Below, in pieces: positions 3,516-12,502 of a stretch of 20,000 nucleotides of DNA. A program made the translations under genes and the position numbers. Source of the DNA: an uncultured virus (IMG/VR IMGVR_UViG_3300042934_000632) (lineage: Duplodnaviria; Heunggongvirae; Uroviricota; Caudoviricetes); IMG/VR virus record IMGVR_UViG_3300042934_000632. One strand, 5' to 3'. Numbering within the stretch: the stretch's first letter is position 1; the number at the start of each line of letters is the position of its first letter. The notes beneath the pieces were generated by a model. It saw nothing but the letters and a program-made list of their open reading frames with translations, had not been told where the DNA came from and made no database searches.

Positions 3516-4292
3516 ATGGGTTCTAAGCATTCAGGGCGAGCCTATCGTTTCCTTGTACCTATTGTGATTATTGTAGTTCTATTAATTGCATGGGGCACTA
3601 GAGAACATAGTCTAAGCCAGAAGCACCAGTCTACGATCTCTTCCCTTAAATCAGAACTAAGTAGCAAGGGTCAGGTTATTGAGAATAAGAATATCCTCAT
3701 TCAGCAGAAACAAGCTGAACTTGATCTCCAGTCTTCGCTGCTGGAACAACAGCAAAAGAAGCTAGACAAAAGACAGGCTATTATCGAGCTGAATATTAAG
3801 GAGGCGCAAGTCTCCGATAATAAGATCGAAGCTCAAAAGAAGACTATCAATCAATTGCAAAAGAAGTTGTCTTCGGAACAGTCCAATACCAGTTTGAAAG
3901 CCAAGCCAACCACTGTAAATGCTACTACAGTCTCGGCAAAAGCATCAGGAAGCTTTCAATCTGGATGGACTGCAACTTACTATTCGCTAAGCGTGGCTTC
4001 CACTGGGAAGAGACCAGGTCACCCTGGCTACGGAATCACGGCTAGCGGACGTAAGGTAGTAGACGGTGTTACGATTGCCGTTGATCCACGATACATTCCT
4101 TTGGGAACTTGGATCGAAATTAAAATGCCTAACGGCGAAGTCATCAAACGAAGAGCCGACGATACAGGCTCCGCCATTAAAGGACATAAGCTAGATATTT
4201 ATGTGGCTGGCGTCAGTGACTCATACATCTATCAAGAACTTGGTAAGAAACAAATCTCTATCCGTATTCTCGGAAAGGGAGAACTGAACTAA
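3516..4292 (+). CDS. Membrane-anchored coiled-coil protein with a C-terminal 3D (Asp-Asp-Asp) domain; YocH/Sps-like peptidoglycan lytic transglycosylase
   Basis: N-terminal hydrophobic helix (FLVPIVIIVVLLIAW), long Q/K/E coiled coil, and 3D-domain motifs TATYY, GITASG, IAVDPRYIPLGT and ADDTGSAIKGHKLDIY. AAGGAGG RBS. Confidence 0.92.
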   Translation: MGSKHSGRAYRFLVPIVIIVVLLIAWGTREHSLSQKHQSTISSLKSELSSKGQVIENKNILIQQKQAELDLQSSLLEQQQKKLDKRQAIIELNIKEAQVSDNKIEAQKKTINQLQKKLSSEQSNTSLKAKPTTVNATTVSAKASGSFQSGWTATYYSLSVASTGKRPGHPGYGITASGRKVVDGVTIAVDPRYIPLGTWIEIKMPNGEVIKRRADDTGSAIKGHKLDIYVAGVSDSYIYQELGKKQISIRILGKGELN

Positions 4293-4525: not shown

Positions 4526-4708
4526 ATGGCAAAAAGCAGTGCAAGAAAGAAGAGAGAACATAGGGTGCGACAAGGAAAATTAAATCCTGAGAATTCCAGA
4601 GGCAGTTGGAATGGTGTTATGCCTGTGACTAAGGTGAAACCAAACAAGAAAAAAGATCACCGCTTTGGTGATTATGATCGAGCTTACAACATTGTTGTAG
4701 GTTGGTAA
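4526..4708 (+). CDS. brfA: Small basic protein resembling Bacillus ribosome rescue factor BrfA (YqkK)
   Basis: The N-terminus MAKSSARKKREHRVRQGKLNPENSRGS aligns without gaps to B. subtilis BrfA as I recall it (MAKSQAKKKRGHRLRNGGRDVLLSRGS). 60 aa, Lys/Arg-rich, GGAGG RBS at 4512-4516. Confidence 0.7.
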   Translation: MAKSSARKKREHRVRQGKLNPENSRGSWNGVMPVTKVKPNKKKDHRFGDYDRAYNIVVGW

Positions 4709-4733
4709 ATAATCATGAGAGAGGAGACCAACA

Positions 4734-5051
4734 ATGTGGTGTAGAATCATGGAGAACACGGAGAATCCTTCTAATATCTTTGAATTTGAAAGCAACAATG
4801 ATTTAATTGTTCATTATACCGTATCGAAAGAAACAAGCACTCCAGTTGTTGAGATTACAAAGTTAGCTACTATTGAAAATAGACTGGAAACATGTGCTAT
4901 TAGTCTTATCAAAAATGAAATTCAGATCCACCTATATACAGGAGAACAGTTATTCAGAGTTTGCGTAGGTGGAATCAGAAGATTCATGTTGTTTGAGCAT
5001 AATGATACAGTTCATGAACGACTAATTATTGATGTAACGAAAGACTTGTAG
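4734..5051 (+). CDS. Hypothetical protein (105 aa)
   Basis: GAGAGGAG RBS; fills the gap between the brfA-like gene and the repeat protein. No family recognised. Confidence 0.65.
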   Translation: MWCRIMENTENPSNIFEFESNNDLIVHYTVSKETSTPVVEITKLATIENRLETCAISLIKNEIQIHLYTGEQLFRVCVGGIRRFMLFEHNDTVHERLIIDVTKDL

Positions 5052-5062
5052 GAGGAGTAGAA

Positions 5063-5593
5063 ATGGCCGTACCAGGCAGCCTGTGGGTTCAAGGGACCCA
5101 GCTTCGTTTTACGAGTCAAAGCGGAGTCAACTTTGCATATGAAGGTACTTATAGTAGCTCGCCTGCTGGAGCTAAACCAGGCAGCTCATGGATCGAAGGC
5201 GATAACTTCGCTTATATCGACCAGTATGGTTCTAAAAGACTCGTTATTAATTATACTGCTACTAATATTCCCGCCGCAGTTGCAGGCAGCTTATGGATTT
5301 ATGGCAATTATCTTTATTGGATTAACACTAATAAGAATAAAACCTACGGACATGGAGATGCAACTCATCAGAATACAAGCTATAATGATGGTAGTTATAA
5401 CGATTATAATAATTCATCAACATCCCATGGTGATTCTACGGTAACTTTCCAAGATTCGCCGACACATGGTAATCATGTACCCTACCATGCGGACTGGCCT
5501 GCTTCACATACGGATAGCTATAACTATCAAGATACACACAACAATAGCTACCATACGGATACTCCACATGCTGATTATCCTATTCAAGTGTAG
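5063..5593 (+). CDS. Repeat protein and putative radical-SAM substrate: three N-terminal A-x-(P/A)-G-S-x-W repeats plus a C-terminal tail with 14 (H/Y/F)-X-(D/N) motifs
   Basis: AGGAGGAG RBS. N-terminal repeats start at residues 2, 37 and 72 (35-aa period). The tail from His97 contains HGD, HQN, YND, YND, YNN, HGD, FQD, HGN, HAD, HTD, YQD, HNN, HTD and HAD. It lies directly upstream of a SPASM radical SAM gene. Confidence 0.85.
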   Translation: MAVPGSLWVQGTQLRFTSQSGVNFAYEGTYSSSPAGAKPGSSWIEGDNFAYIDQYGSKRLVINYTATNIPAAVAGSLWIYGNYLYWINTNKNKTYGHGDATHQNTSYNDGSYNDYNNSSTSHGDSTVTFQDSPTHGNHVPYHADWPASHTDSYNYQDTHNNSYHTDTPHADYPIQV

Positions 5594-5608
5594 GGAGGAG
5601 AGAACACA

Positions 5609-6829
5609 TTGACAACAGAAGTGAGACCTATGGGTGTTTCGTGTCCTTTAAAATGTGTTTATTGCTATCAAGAACCCCAGAGGGTTGCGGGAAATACTAA
5701 TGCAAAATATGATTTGGCGAAGATGATTCAGGAGATCTCAAAGACTCGAACAAAGAATATTAATTTCTTTGGTGGCGAGATCTTAATGATGCCTATAGAA
5801 GATCTAGAGGTACTGCTGGCTTACGCTCATGTTAAGTTCGGTGGATCAGGTGTTCAAACCAGCGGATCTATCATGAGAGATGAACATATTGAACTCTTCA
5901 AAAAGTACAATGTTCAGCTGGGCTTCTCCATTGACGGTCCTAACGAGCTAAACAGTCTCCGAGTTCCACGCAATCCAAAGACTCCTATTGAAAGTACAAC
6001 GGATAATACAATGAAATATATCAAGCTATCAAAAGAAGCTGGGCTTGATGTAGGCCTTATTATTACCCTTCATAGAGAAAACTCTACTCCAGAACGTATT
6101 CCACGGTTGTTTAATTTTATCAAGTGGTTATGGGATCTTGGTATTCGTAGCGGGAATATTCATACTCTAGAAATTGAATCTACAATGCCGAACCACGACT
6201 TTGTATTGACACAAGAAGAGAACATCTGGGCTTACACCCAACTTGCCGAGTTCTTTAAAACGCTTCCTGACCATGGATGGAATCCTTTCGCAGAGATTAA
6301 AGACTTACTGATGGGTAACGATCAAAAAACTCTTTGTTATTGGCACCGATGCGATCCATTGAATACTCAAGCTGTCCACGGAATCGAAGGTGACGGTGCA
6401 ATCTCTAACTGTGGACGAGCAAATAAAGAAGGAATTGACTGGGTCAAAGCTCCTGATAATTATTATGCAAGATACATCAGCTTCTATCATACGCCTCAAG
6501 ATATGGGTGGCTGTAATGGATGCCGCTTCTGGACAGTATGCGGAGGAAGTTGCCCAGGTGAATCCGATCAGGGGGATTTCAGAAATAAAACAACACATTG
6601 CTCTACTCAGAAAGCAATACTTTCCTATTATGAAAAAGAACTTATTGATGAAGGCAAGCTACCCATTACGACATCGCCTTTGCTTCCTCTTGTTGAACAG
6701 CTCGTTCTTAATGGTCTTGAAAGAGGAGAGAACTTATATCTTAATACTGTTATTTCAATGATTGAAGAGATGAGAACAGAAGTCATCCAACTGGAAGTCG
6801 TAGAGGAGGATATCAATGAAACTACTTGA
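5609..6829 (+). CDS. Radical SAM enzyme with C-terminal SPASM domain (peptide/protein maturase type)
   Basis: CxxxCxxC (CPLKCVYC), FFGGE and SIDGP motifs. The SPASM cysteines are CYWHRC, ISNC, CNGCRFWTVCGGSC and THC. TTG start behind GGGAGGAG. There is no N-terminal RRE/PqqD extension, since the SAM cluster motif starts at residue 12. Confidence 0.95.
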   Translation: MTTEVRPMGVSCPLKCVYCYQEPQRVAGNTNAKYDLAKMIQEISKTRTKNINFFGGEILMMPIEDLEVLLAYAHVKFGGSGVQTSGSIMRDEHIELFKKYNVQLGFSIDGPNELNSLRVPRNPKTPIESTTDNTMKYIKLSKEAGLDVGLIITLHRENSTPERIPRLFNFIKWLWDLGIRSGNIHTLEIESTMPNHDFVLTQEENIWAYTQLAEFFKTLPDHGWNPFAEIKDLLMGNDQKTLCYWHRCDPLNTQAVHGIEGDGAISNCGRANKEGIDWVKAPDNYYARYISFYHTPQDMGGCNGCRFWTVCGGSCPGESDQGDFRNKTTHCSTQKAILSYYEKELIDEGKLPITTSPLLPLVEQLVLNGLERGENLYLNTVISMIEEMRTEVIQLEVVEEDINETT

Positions 6830-7760
6830 TTTTAGTATGCCACCATTTGCAAGAACGGTTTGGGCCTCTCAAGAAATAGAGAAGGAGTGGCGTCCCAAAC
6901 TGGCTTTAGCCTCTCAAGCTTATGAGCGTTTAGAGTATGAAACGGTTGTTCATGGCCTTAGAGCCTGTACAACAGCACATTGTACTCCTGATGATATGGT
7001 TCGTCGGATTCAATTTTATGCAAAGAAAGGTCTTATGTATCATCCCTTACAGCAAGTAGGTGCTTATACAGGGTTCGCTCATACACACCCTCCAGTTATT
7101 CCAGGAAAACCTTGGACCTGGTTCGGTGTTGTAGCTAAAGACCCTCTTGATGCTTACACCTTTGCTGAGGCATCTGCATTGACAGAAGATTCCGCGGGTA
7201 AGGAAATAGATCACTCAACGATTGGCACTCTTCTTGGATACCCTGAATGCTGCCGAAAGTTCTTCACAGATGTATGGGCCGCGGGATATGTTGATCCTGT
7301 ATGGCAACAAGCAGAAAACTGTGAAGGTGAATACGTAGTGAAGAAAGAAGAGCATCTTATTCAGCTAAGCAAGGAGACTCCATGGGAGACTTCACCACTA
7401 CTGAGATACATTGGAGTACGTATCATGCCTCACATTCCATGCTCTCATGATTGTAAACCTTCTCTGGTTATCGCAAGAAGTTGGTTGGATCTTGGTAGAG
7501 AGTTGGCCATACCAGGCATGGAAGAGCTTGAGCAATTTCTTCGGATGCCAGTAGAATGGGATTGCTTGAAGGGGATAGCCTATGTGTCTACTCCAATCTT
7601 CAAGATTGAAACGAATTCCATGACATGTTATCCACGGCATGTTGTTCAAAAGGAAGGAACATTTAGACCAAAGAGTGGAGCAAAAGGACTGAAGTTTCCT
7701 TTTATTCCGCTAGGATCTGATAAGTTTGCTCACCTCTTTGGAGGAGGAAGCGGGTGCTAA
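6816..7760 (+). CDS. Cys/His-rich protein with DUF483-like motifs, probable partner of the radical SAM enzyme
   Basis: Motifs IGTLLGYPECCRKFF and PHIPCSHDC resemble the conserved DUF483 segments LGYPxCC and PCSxxC (recalled, not searched). It overlaps the rSAM gene by 14 nt and has a GAGGAGG RBS. Confidence 0.7.
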   Translation: MKLLDFSMPPFARTVWASQEIEKEWRPKLALASQAYERLEYETVVHGLRACTTAHCTPDDMVRRIQFYAKKGLMYHPLQQVGAYTGFAHTHPPVIPGKPWTWFGVVAKDPLDAYTFAEASALTEDSAGKEIDHSTIGTLLGYPECCRKFFTDVWAAGYVDPVWQQAENCEGEYVVKKEEHLIQLSKETPWETSPLLRYIGVRIMPHIPCSHDCKPSLVIARSWLDLGRELAIPGMEELEQFLRMPVEWDCLKGIAYVSTPIFKIETNSMTCYPRHVVQKEGTFRPKSGAKGLKFPFIPLGSDKFAHLFGGGSGC

Positions 7761-7763
7761 TTC

Positions 7764-8009
7764 ATGTTTAAACAACGTTTATGGGATTGCCTTTTGGCAG
7801 TCCTTTCTTTTATTGTAGCAATAGTATTAATCATTGGTATAGCTTTTCTAGCTGTTTTCTTGTCAGACATCTATTGGTTTAAGATACTTGTAAGTACTGT
7901 TGTTATTCTTATCTTGTCCTTCGTTGTTATTATCGCTCTTTCACTGTTTGTTAACTGGCTGTTTATTGAACCATACAAACATTGGAAAGAAGAAAATAAA
8001 AACAGATAG
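7764..8009 (+). CDS. Small membrane protein with two predicted TM helices
   Basis: Two long hydrophobic stretches (about residues 9-33 and 41-67) and a charged C-terminal tail. GGAGGAGG RBS, 3 nt after the previous stop. Confidence 0.75.
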   Translation: MFKQRLWDCLLAVLSFIVAIVLIIGIAFLAVFLSDIYWFKILVSTVVILILSFVVIIALSLFVNWLFIEPYKHWKEENKNR

Positions 8010-8116: not shown

Positions 8117-8446
8117 ATGTTGATGAGATTGAGTTCGCAAAATGTAAGTAATGCTTTTATGACGTTCATGAAAGAGGCTCCTAAACAATACGAAGCTTGG
8201 CAAGAAATGATTATGAAACTTGACGTAGCAAGCGCACTTGTCAATAAGACAGAGGAGCTTGCCTATATTTCAGTTCTTGCCGCTGTTAGACTAGAAAGCG
8301 GTTTGGAGTTCCATGTAAAACAAGCAAAATCTTTTGGAGCTACGCGGGATGAAATCATTAGTGCAATTCTATTACCACTTCCCGCTGTTGGTAATGTAGC
8401 CATTCAATCTCTACCAATCGCATTACAAGCTTACGATGTGTCATAA
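8117..8446 (+). CDS. Carboxymuconolactone decarboxylase (CMD/AhpD-like) family protein lacking CxxC
   Basis: KTEELAYISVLAAVRLESGLEFHVKQAKSFGATRDEIISAIL matches the CMD family pattern (L..k..ELi.ia......l..H...A...GaT.eEI). The true start may be ATG 8123. Confidence 0.85.
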   Translation: MLMRLSSQNVSNAFMTFMKEAPKQYEAWQEMIMKLDVASALVNKTEELAYISVLAAVRLESGLEFHVKQAKSFGATRDEIISAILLPLPAVGNVAIQSLPIALQAYDVS

Positions 8447-11897: not shown

Positions 11898-12215
11898 ATG
11901 AGTTCAGTCGTAGAAAGAGCAAAGTTGGTTCGGGCAAATGTCTTTGAGATCCTGTCTAAGTTTCCTGAAACAAGAGATAGTGATCGTCGGCTCCTCCTTC
12001 GGTATTGGAACCATGTTGACGGACTCCAATTCGATTTTACATTCCCTGAACAATTCGCAACTACTGGGACATCTGCTGAAAGTATTACCCGCGCCCGTAG
12101 GCAGATTCAGAAAGAAGGTCACTTCGTAGCTTCTCAAGAAGTTTTGGAGCGCCGAGAAGAAAGTCGTAGCGGAATGCGAGAATACTTTATCGGTTCTGAA
12201 GTATCCAGAGCTTAG
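11898..12215 (+). CDS. Hypothetical protein, paralog of 12221..12502
   Basis: Shared motifs PETRDS..LLLRYW...D and AESITRARR. GGGGG RBS. Confidence 0.8.
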   Translation: MSSVVERAKLVRANVFEILSKFPETRDSDRRLLLRYWNHVDGLQFDFTFPEQFATTGTSAESITRARRQIQKEGHFVASQEVLERREESRSGMREYFIGSEVSRA

Positions 12216-12220
12216 TCTTT

Positions 12221-12502
12221 ATGGCTGAGCAAGAGTTCAAAAGGGCAGATCAAAAAGCTGCCTACCTGATGGACGCAGCCCCGCAAACAAGACAGGACCA
12301 TTTGCTACTCATCCTAATGTACTGGCAGATATTCGACAATATTGATTTGCCTGACACAGTGGTAAAAGAAATTATAGAGAAAGCCACTGCACCCGAGACC
12401 ATTACACGTTCTAGGAGAAAGGTCACGGAAAAGTTAAGGTACAAACAATTGTTTGAACTTCAAAGGATGATAAGGGAACAGGTACAGGAAGAGGCTCCTT
12501 GA
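12221..12502 (+). CDS. Hypothetical protein, paralog of 11898..12215
   Basis: Shared motifs PQTRQD..LILMYW...D and PETITRSRR. Confidence 0.8.
   Translation: MAEQEFKRADQKAAYLMDAAPQTRQDHLLLILMYWQIFDNIDLPDTVVKEIIEKATAPETITRSRRKVTEKLRYKQLFELQRMIREQVQEEAP

Follow-up and report, generated by a model that had tools for sequence, protein, structure and literature searches.

The stretch of DNA analyzed here, called the window below, comprises 20,000 nucleotides (nt) from an uncultured tailed virus (Caudoviricetes; IMG/VR record IMGVR_UViG_3300042934_000632) and belongs to a complete virus record of 251.5 kb. It carries a module of three genes: the first codes for a protein of 176 amino acids (aa) whose C-terminal tail contains 14 aromatic-X-Asp/Asn triplets, the second for a putative radical S-adenosylmethionine (rSAM) enzyme of the SPASM type, and the third for a DUF483-like protein. 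The conservation of the triplets and the recurrence of the gene trio in other genomes suggest that the motif-bearing protein is the substrate of the enzyme. The features of the module are the following.

5063..5593, + strand: motif-bearing (putative substrate) protein, 176 aa; supported by the open reading frame (ORF) call, a Shine-Dalgarno sequence, and a 65%-identical orthologue (P0006)
5063..5350, + strand: N-terminal all-beta domain with three PGSxW[VI]xGxxhxY repeats, residues 1–96 (AlphaFold2 confidence, pLDDT, 89–98)
5351..5575, + strand: tail with 14 aromatic-X-Asp/Asn triplets, proposed modification sites; residues 97–171, predicted disordered
5576..5593, + strand: conserved C-terminal end Y-P-I-Q-V and stop codon
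5609..6829, + strand: radical SAM/SPASM enzyme, 406 aa (Pfam Radical_SAM, 7.5e-16)
6816..7760, + strand: DUF483-like partner, 314 aa; overlaps the stop codon of the rSAM gene

Gene Organization and Predicted Structure of the Motif-Bearing Protein

A strong Shine-Dalgarno sequence (AGGAGGAG) lies 7 nt 5' of ORF 5063–5593, and the enzyme gene begins sixteen bases after the stop codon of this ORF, at a TTG start preceded by GGGAGGAG. In fact, the ribosome-binding sites are good across the whole gene order, from the substrate through the rSAM to the partner.

The structure of the motif-bearing protein was modeled with AlphaFold2 from an alignment of 32 sequences (A1). Residues 1–100 are predicted as a confident all-beta domain of 11 strands (predicted local distance difference test, pLDDT, of 84–98); residues 101–165 have a pLDDT of 40–57 and no secondary structure, and no solenoid is predicted by AlphaFold2 for the tail. 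At the C-terminal end the pLDDT climbs to 89, and DSSP assigns a strand to residues 174–175. Since every other strand sits in the N-terminal domain, the conserved C-terminal end of the model would dock onto that domain, so that the triplet region would form a closed loop. With regard to known folds, a Foldseek search of the model against the PDB gave nothing significant (best E 0.17), and VIA-align found no significant solved fold (best 3m7h, Z 4.0, 89 residues aligned). One clear match was obtained in BFVD, a viral protein of 342 aa (E 3.5e-10, 30% identity) that, judging by its length, is probably the homologue from phage phiMa described below. No model of Pfam, PHROG, or NCBIfam matches the protein.

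The Aromatic-X-Asp/Asn Pattern of the Tail

The tail (residues 97–176, starting at nt 5351) follows a strict grammar. All ten of its Asp residues have an aromatic residue exactly two positions before them (i−2), which is His in six cases, Tyr in three, and Phe in one (HGD97, YND107, YND112, HGD122, FQD129, HAD142, HTD149, YQD155, HTD164, and HAD169). Four of the nine tail Asn residues complete further triplets of the same kind (HQN102, YNN115, HGN135, and HNN159), and position 1 of the 14 triplets is occupied by nine His, four Tyr, and one Phe. The spacers between triplets are 0–4 residues long, and Lys, Arg, Glu, and Leu are absent from the tail. The start of the tail, both sets of triplets, the short spacers, and the lack of these four residues had been pointed out in a preliminary description made from the sequence alone, and all of them are borne out by the translation of 5063–5593. 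Cys and Met are likewise absent.

The tail is rich in His and Asp (12.5% each), and H, D, T, S, N, and Y account for 57 of its 80 residues. The preliminary description had named composition alone as a possible source of the pattern, but the observed ten Asp were reached in none of 200,000 shuffles of the 80 residues. The shuffle maximum, eight Asp with an aromatic residue at i−2, occurred 17 times, and the combined Asp and Asn count of 14 was reached in no shuffle. At the other offsets from −5 to +5, three at most of the ten Asp are paired with an aromatic residue. The remaining proteins of the phage provide a further background, with an aromatic residue at i−2 for 490 of 3,724 Asp (13.2%) in the other ORFs of at least 150 aa. 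When 1,462 ORFs from the 251.5-kb phage, each 40 aa or longer, were scanned and the top 12 by motif count compared, only ORF 5063–5593 had a high fraction (11 of 12 Asp), the others not exceeding 0.24. The DNA is, as previously described, not a simple tandem repeat: Tandem Repeats Finder reported nothing at a score of at least 30 in 5000–5700, 13 different 9-mers encode the 14 triplets, and exact direct repeats in the tail DNA extend to 10 nt at most. The shuffles, Tandem Repeats Finder, and the diversity of the 9-mers thus refute both composition or chance and a tandem repeat of the DNA.

Conservation of the Triplets among Relatives

A search with the N-terminal domain found 276 relatives (E ≤ 1e-3) among 1.84 billion representatives, and of the 151 relatives listed, 72 have five or more aromatic-x-Asp triplets that account for half or more of their Asp. 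In alignment A1, one glycine per repeat is invariant (G5, G40, and G75), and the length of the tail differs widely. The C-terminal consensus of A1, HxD-x-P-x-x-V(-G-P), is nearly invariant, the window protein ending in H-A-D-Y-P-I-Q-V; 90% or more of the 32 sequences retain P173, and the same ending is found in most viral relatives.

The alignment of homologous tails, suggested in the preliminary description as a check, shows that the triplets are conserved while X2, the spacers, and the copy number vary. For example, between the window protein and P0006 the aromatic position is identical in all 14 triplets and X3 in 12 of them, both changes being from Asn to Asp, so that X3 is Asp or Asn in 14 of 14. 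X2, on the other hand, is identical in only 5 of 14 triplets, and the spacers at 25 of 38 positions. The tails of 31 relatives contain 644 Asp, of which 553 are preceded at i−2 by an aromatic residue (His 426, Tyr 66, Phe 38, and Trp 23). Seen from the aromatic residue, Asp or Asn stands at +2 of 94% of the His, 45% of the Tyr, 49% of the Phe, and 64% of the Trp in these tails, against an Asp plus Asn background of 24%. The observed count was reached by none of 2,000 shuffles in 31 of the 32 tails. Another set, of 53 non-redundant viral substrates (motif-rich ORFs adjoining the enzyme gene in viral contigs), has an aromatic residue at −2 for 78% of 2,539 Asp and 8–37% at other offsets; at −2, the corresponding values for Asn, Glu, and Ser are 37, 20, and 6%. 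Copy number goes from 14 motifs in the window protein to about 100 in one viral locus (L003), and viral relatives reach about 1,200 aa. The homologue from the cultured Thermus phage phiMa (342 aa) has three N-terminal PGSxWxxGxxLxY repeats and a much longer His-x-Asp tail, and tblastn of the window protein against its gene, phiMa_29, gave 30% identity at 97% coverage (7e-8). The aromatic-x-Asp/Asn pattern is therefore genuine and conserved, and it lies far outside chance expectation.

The three-repeat beta domain also exists without a triplet tail, being then C-terminal in proteins with H-type lectin, concanavalin-like (Laminin_G_3), or GLUG domains; P0070, P0076, P0111, P0121, and P0153 have the domain and lack the tail.

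The Radical SAM/SPASM Enzyme and the DUF483-Like Partner

The cluster motif of the enzyme, C12-x3-C16-x2-C19, is invariant in 25 homologues, and so are the SPASM-type cysteines (C248-x14-G263-x4-C268, C302-x2-C305-x5-C311-x3-C315, and C331); the Pfam SPASM model itself gives no match at E ≤ 0.01. Because the CxxxCxxC motif starts at residue 12, an N-terminal leader-binding domain is absent. Homologues of the enzyme fall into at least 261 clusters at E ≤ 1e-10. The best NCBIfam match is the cyclophane-forming maturase AmcB (3.1e-20, 72.5 bits versus a cutoff of 425), and ranthipeptide and heme-pathway enzymes are matched below it. The equivalog model TIGR03942 of the anaerobic sulfatase-maturating enzyme (anSME) scores 53.6 bits, under its cutoff of 349.45. 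A profile of the family searched against PDB sequences placed anSME first (8.2e-20) and ChlB second (8.7e-14), followed by SkfB and CteB. By these sequence comparisons, the enzyme is in the SPASM protein/peptide-modifying group and in no curated family.

Some homologous enzymes have features of their own. P0219, an rSAM homologue of 555 aa, shows Intein_splicing/Hint matches at residues 16–171, before the radical SAM domain, and this insert near the cluster motif is possibly an intein. Two viral rSAMs (L018:3491–5512 and L013:3995–5938) bear C-terminal PHGDHTD repeats with 28 and 27 aromatic-x-Asp triplets, respectively, as if the enzyme were fused to a possible substrate or to a metal-binding tail; the C-terminus of the phiMa enzyme also reads HGD..HGD..HGD. 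The deposited start of the latter enzyme (phiMa_28) lies after the CxxxCxxC motif and omits 38 N-terminal residues (L001 6039–6151); an in-frame ATG at L001:6039 restores the motif, which places the real start upstream of the deposited one.

The partner matches Pfam DUF483 (PF04467) weakly (8.5e-4, 19.8 bits, gathering cutoff 25), and one of its relatives (L038:1350–2789) does so at 30.2 bits. DUF483 is also present in 16–34% of the members of its atlas neighbours. The four cysteines C145, C146, C209, and C213 do not vary across 32 sequences, of which 90% or more retain H206. The model of the partner is confident (pLDDT 90), and NCBIfam gives no match to its sequence. An extra C-terminal class I methyltransferase domain was found in five of six partner relatives from other viral loci scanned; it is absent from the window partner and from its phiMa counterpart, phiMa_27.

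Linkage of the Three Genes in Viruses and Cells

A viral scan with the enzyme alignment (A2) found at least 611 stretches, at least 131 of them encoding relatives, from which the 80 best were retained, making up 76 loci; those with an rSAM at E ≤ 1e-30 form an orthologue set of 54 viral loci. In 48 of these 54 there is an ORF in which ten or more motifs take in 50% or more of the Asp, and it usually ends at or overlaps the start of the enzyme gene. The six exceptions consist of four loci cut upstream (L004, L037, L046, and L048) and two with large ORFs (L047 and L051, with 30/99 and 39/90 motifs). The DUF483-like partner adjoins the rSAM in 50 of the 54, the N-terminal repeat domain is detectable in 37, and some viral loci contain two or three substrates. 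Phage phiMa carries the same trio in the same order and in one orientation (phiMa_29, phiMa_28 for the rSAM, and phiMa_27 for the DUF483-like protein). A megablast search of 4700–7800 against phages gave no match, and a related-locus search with a single rSAM sequence gave no relatives.

In cells, scanned with one genome per species, relatives of the enzyme occur in the genomes of 295 species, spread over many phyla of bacteria and including one archaeon; Chengkuizengella axinellae has the closest one (51% identity). Among the 80 cellular loci kept, the partner is found in 77 and is fused to the enzyme as one ORF in 20. A long motif-rich ORF is present in 30 of these loci, and in several more, short peptides of 62–109 aa with six to nine HxD motifs are encoded immediately ahead of the enzyme (L137, L138, L147, L149, L151, L125, L134, and L123), and the bacterial peptides of 62–69 aa have seven to nine HxD motifs and no N-terminal domain. 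In fact, the N-terminal repeat domain is present in only 2 of the 80 cellular loci; therefore, it is the triplet, and not the domain, that travels with the enzyme. In Chthonomonas and Armatimonadota genomes, short proteins encoded after the enzyme pair (L125:6172–6501 and L134:6219–6500) show a twin-arginine-like signal (RRTLIAAGWTVPVV...) and then HSDHTDAHTDVHTD, which suggests that His-x-Asp peptides are exported in some bacteria.

Genomic Surroundings and Possible Association with the Particle

The neighbours of the module in the window code for a dUTPase, a primase, a dNMP kinase, a thymidine kinase, and a helicase. Among related loci, tail-category neighbours were found in 18 of 30 scanned (88 proteins), including tail fibre, host-specificity, tail collar, tube, and tape measure proteins. 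In phiMa, the module comes after four baseplate genes and before an endolysin-like peptidase. Moreover, one triplet tail is carried by a collagen-like tail fibre protein (L010:510–2186; 25 of 28 Asp in the grammar), and the large triplet-bearing ORFs of L023, L047, and L051 match phrog_8510, a virion structural protein, those of L047 and L051 having fewer than 50% of their Asp in triplets. The gene context of these relatives indicates that the motif-bearing protein of the window is probably particle-associated; the evidence is taken from relatives because the window module lies among replication and nucleotide-metabolism genes.

As for other genes of the window, ORF 3516–4292 (+ strand; 258 aa), 440 nt before ORF 4734–5051, codes for a cell-wall-hydrolase-like, membrane-anchored product whose N-terminus is hydrophobic over a segment; a long coiled-coil-like region follows, and a 3D domain (PF06725, 8.7e-12) forms the C-terminal part. 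ORF 4734–5051 (+ strand; 105 aa), directly 5' of the substrate gene, has no match in Pfam, NCBIfam, or PHROGs, and its product matches no ORF in the 76 viral loci; for this reason it is not counted in the system. At the same position phiMa has a small ORF that is unrelated to it. Downstream, 357 nt 3' of the partner gene, ORF 8117–8446 (+ strand) belongs to the carboxymuconolactone decarboxylase (AhpD-like) family (PF02627, 8.1e-10), and ORFs 11898–12215 and 12221–12502 (+ strand) are a tandem pair of paralogues, both matching phrog_24961 (3.5e-10 and 6.8e-11).

Proposed Modification of the Triplets and Alternative Explanations

The preliminary description had interpreted the triplets either as an enzyme recognition motif or as a His/Asp metal-binding ladder in a beta-solenoid. 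The first interpretation is well supported, because 48 of 54 viral loci show the pairing with an rSAM/SPASM enzyme, and both the fusions and the pattern of selection agree with it; the second lacks support, for the reasons given below. In the favored reading, which we hold to be marginally probable, the triplets would be sites of three-residue cyclophane formation by the rSAM and its DUF483-like partner. Like other members of its family, the enzyme would cleave SAM reductively, and the resulting 5'-deoxyadenosyl radical would abstract a C-beta hydrogen from the Asp or Asn at position 3. This step is proposed because anSME and ChlB, the nearest solved relatives, both act at the C-beta of a residue. 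The carbon radical would then attack the aromatic ring at position 1 and, as the grammar suggests, close a three-residue cyclophane, each motif losing 2 Da. What results would be a protein of 176 aa with a flexible tail, held between the three-repeat beta domain and the C-terminal strand and bearing up to 14 small rings. In a wider and more tentative proposal, whose chances seem to us somewhat short of even, tailed phages, including this one of 251 kb, would employ a dedicated two-component enzyme (rSAM/SPASM and DUF483-like partner) to place tens of three-residue rings on fibre-type proteins of their own, also through a previously undescribed link from His to the C-beta of Asp; a chemistry known only from small peptide natural products would thus act at the scale of a protein on a virus particle, and the stapled loop would serve as a protease-proof and heat-proof, possibly metal-binding, surface element.

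Several points weigh against cyclophane formation. Both the modification of the triplets and the type of crosslink are inferred. The enzyme does not belong to any curated cyclophane-synthase family, its scores being far under the cutoffs (NCBIfam bits/cutoff: YhhB 50/445, XyeB 38.8/450, GrrM/OscB 38.7/310, and DynA 55.3/450). Its best solved relative, anSME, is an oxidizing rather than a crosslinking enzyme, and the matches to curated families and solved structures span only the N-terminal radical SAM core, that to 4k36 (anSME) covering residues 4–119. The fold of the partner has no clear solved relative (the best Foldseek hit being 2guk at E 0.065, and VIA-align giving 2guk_B with Z 6.3 across 108 residues and NleE with Z 4.4). 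In cells, a long motif-rich ORF lies within 4 kb of the enzyme in only 30 of the 80 loci, about ten more having shorter ones, and about half of the loci have no motif-rich ORF within that distance. The position of the window module, away from tail genes, is a further point of this kind. Finally, His-x-Asp is not among the crosslinks described in PMC11499958 and in the available text of PMC11002830.

An unlikely alternative, which survives best among the rivals, keeps the enzyme and the sites and changes the chemistry: anSME-like oxidation at C-beta, epimerization, a C–N or C–O link, or the insertion of carbon with a gain of 8 Da, as in HxsA. The rank of anSME as best solved relative by profile (8.2e-20) is in its favor, and the only radical SAM system studied experimentally on a His-x-Ser repeat protein gave +8 and not −2 Da, according to the available text of PMC13128918. 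The methyltransferase domain of five of six viral partner relatives, although lacking in phiMa_27 and in the window, hints at further chemistry. However, oxidation or epimerization at Asp would leave the strict aromatic residue at i−2, Phe and Trp included, unexplained; this i/i+2 spacing of an aromatic residue and X3 is the defining grammar of triceptides, for which there are Tyr-x-Asp, Trp-x-Asp/Asn, and Phe-x-Asn precedents in the parts of the literature cited below that were available.

It is quite improbable, in our judgment, that the tail is instead an unmodified His/Asp metal binder (serving as ladder, store, or chaperone, for instance of the Fe–S clusters of the enzyme), with a link to the rSAM that is functional and not that of substrate to enzyme. 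His and Asp make up a quarter of the tail, His-x-Asp is a plausible chelating pair, and the His-x-Asp tails at the C-termini of some enzymes resemble the His-rich tails of metallochaperones. Nevertheless, neither a solenoid nor an ordered ladder is predicted for the tail, whose pLDDT is that of a region without structure, and the enzyme is of the SPASM type that modifies peptides and proteins. Five of the 14 window triplets have Tyr or Phe at position 1, and in relatives the frequency of Asp or Asn at +2 of Phe and Trp is 2 to 2.6 times the background. Phe and Trp cannot ligate metals; therefore, their obeying the grammar argues against a pure metal-ligand motif. The tail, modified or unmodified, may nonetheless bind metal.

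A very improbable alternative is that DNA or a nucleotide is the substrate of the rSAM and DUF483 pair, with the motif-bearing protein as an accessory, as has been speculated for the phages phiMa and Cumys. Homologues lie near deazapurine DNA-modification genes of cyanobacteria (PMC11437467, available text), and the module has the replication and nucleotide neighbours listed above in the window. On the other hand, neighbours are of the tail category at 18 of 30 related loci scanned, where no DNA-modification genes were seen beyond HNH/homing endonucleases and one polynucleotide kinase; motif tails are found on collagen-like tail fibre proteins; and the short HxD peptides directly before fused bacterial enzymes have the layout of RiPPs (peptides made by the ribosome and modified after their translation). 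The text of PMC11437467 that was available makes no mention of the repeats. The last alternative, a by-product of composition or of a recent DNA repeat, has a virtually negligible probability since, for all the low complexity of the tail, no shuffle reproduces its count, no tandem repeat encodes it, its 9-mers are diverse, and hundreds of diverged relatives keep its grammar.

Significance

To our knowledge, stapling of the triceptide type by radical SAM enzymes has up to now been demonstrated in small bacterial peptides only. Should the triplets be stapled, this cyclophane chemistry would extend from small secreted peptides to whole viral structural proteins, through an enzyme that is widespread, with relatives in at least 131 viral contigs and in the genomes of 295 species. 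Such a modification would add a new substrate motif, His-x-Asp, and a new obligatory partner fold; it would amount to a natural system installing up to about 100 rings per polypeptide, of interest for protein engineering; and it would correct the sole published guess for the module, DNA modification. Because the cultured Thermus phages phiMa and Cumys carry the module, the idea is directly testable.

Comparison with Known Systems

Triceptides carry crosslinks from an aromatic residue to a C-beta on aromatic-X2-X3 motifs, formed by rSAM/SPASM enzymes, and one such enzyme, specific for His, also took Phe or Trp at position 1 (PMC11499958). In the available text of a review, Tyr-C3 is joined to Asp-C-beta by YxdB, Trp to Asn or Asp by OscB, and Phe to Asn by XncB/OscB, and crosslinks of His-C2 with Ala or Arg are listed as well (PMC11002830); therefore, as far as that text goes, the Tyr-x-Asp and Phe/Tyr-x-Asn triplets have direct precedents. 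Compared with the triceptide synthases (3-CyFEs) XncB, OscB, MscB, YxdB, HaaB, YhhB, HtkB, and ChlB, the window system is similar in that an rSAM/SPASM gene adjoins a substrate with repeated aromatic-X2-X3 motifs, that Asp and Asn are known at X3 and several aromatic residues are tolerated at position 1, and that ChlB is among the nearest solved structures of the enzyme. It differs in that its enzyme scores far under every curated 3-CyFE cutoff, and in that its substrate is not a short leader–core peptide, but a protein of 176 aa with a confidently folded domain of about 100 residues. The DUF483-like partner, obligatory and frequently found in fusion with the enzyme or a methyltransferase, and the encoding by phages, in tail or baseplate blocks in the case of relatives, also set it apart.

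Another enzyme close to that of the window is anSME, its nearest solved structure by profile (8.2e-20). This enzyme acts on a C-beta hydrogen inside a full-length protein and has no N-terminal leader-binding domain. The substrate motif of the window is different, and anSME forms no crosslink.

The module itself has been reported in phiMa and Cumys as three genes, for an rSAM, a DUF483 protein, and an unknown protein, present also in prophages and with domain fusions; the available text notes the homologues near cyanobacterial deazapurine genes and suggests an unknown DNA modification (Viruses 2024, PMC11437467). The same three genes are present in the window in the same order, and the proteins are homologous. 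In that report, two of the proteins are of "unknown function," and the text available mentions neither aromatic-x-Asp repeats nor a protein substrate (PMC11437467).

The HXS antiphage system offers a further parallel. According to the available text of its description, HxsA has His-x-Ser repeats and acts with the rSAMs HxsB and HxsC and with HxsD; mutation of His or Ser in the motif abolishes function, and the protein undergoes a change of +8 Da (Nat Commun 2026, PMC13128918). As in the window, a whole protein with His-x-small-residue repeats, maturation by radical SAM chemistry, and a small partner are involved. Unlike the window module, HXS is a bacterial defence with two rSAMs, five repeats, and Ser as X3. 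The window module is not an HXS system, having a single rSAM that scores 36.1 bits with HxsB (cutoff 370), and in its family Ser is uncoupled from an aromatic residue at −2 (6%). Literature searches, with the JACS 2022 triceptide landscape outside their scope, gave no description of aromatic-x-Asp repeats as radical SAM targets. With respect to these systems, what would be new here is a triceptide-like logic applied to an entire protein of a phage, together with the enzyme family, the partner, and the His-x-Asp motif.

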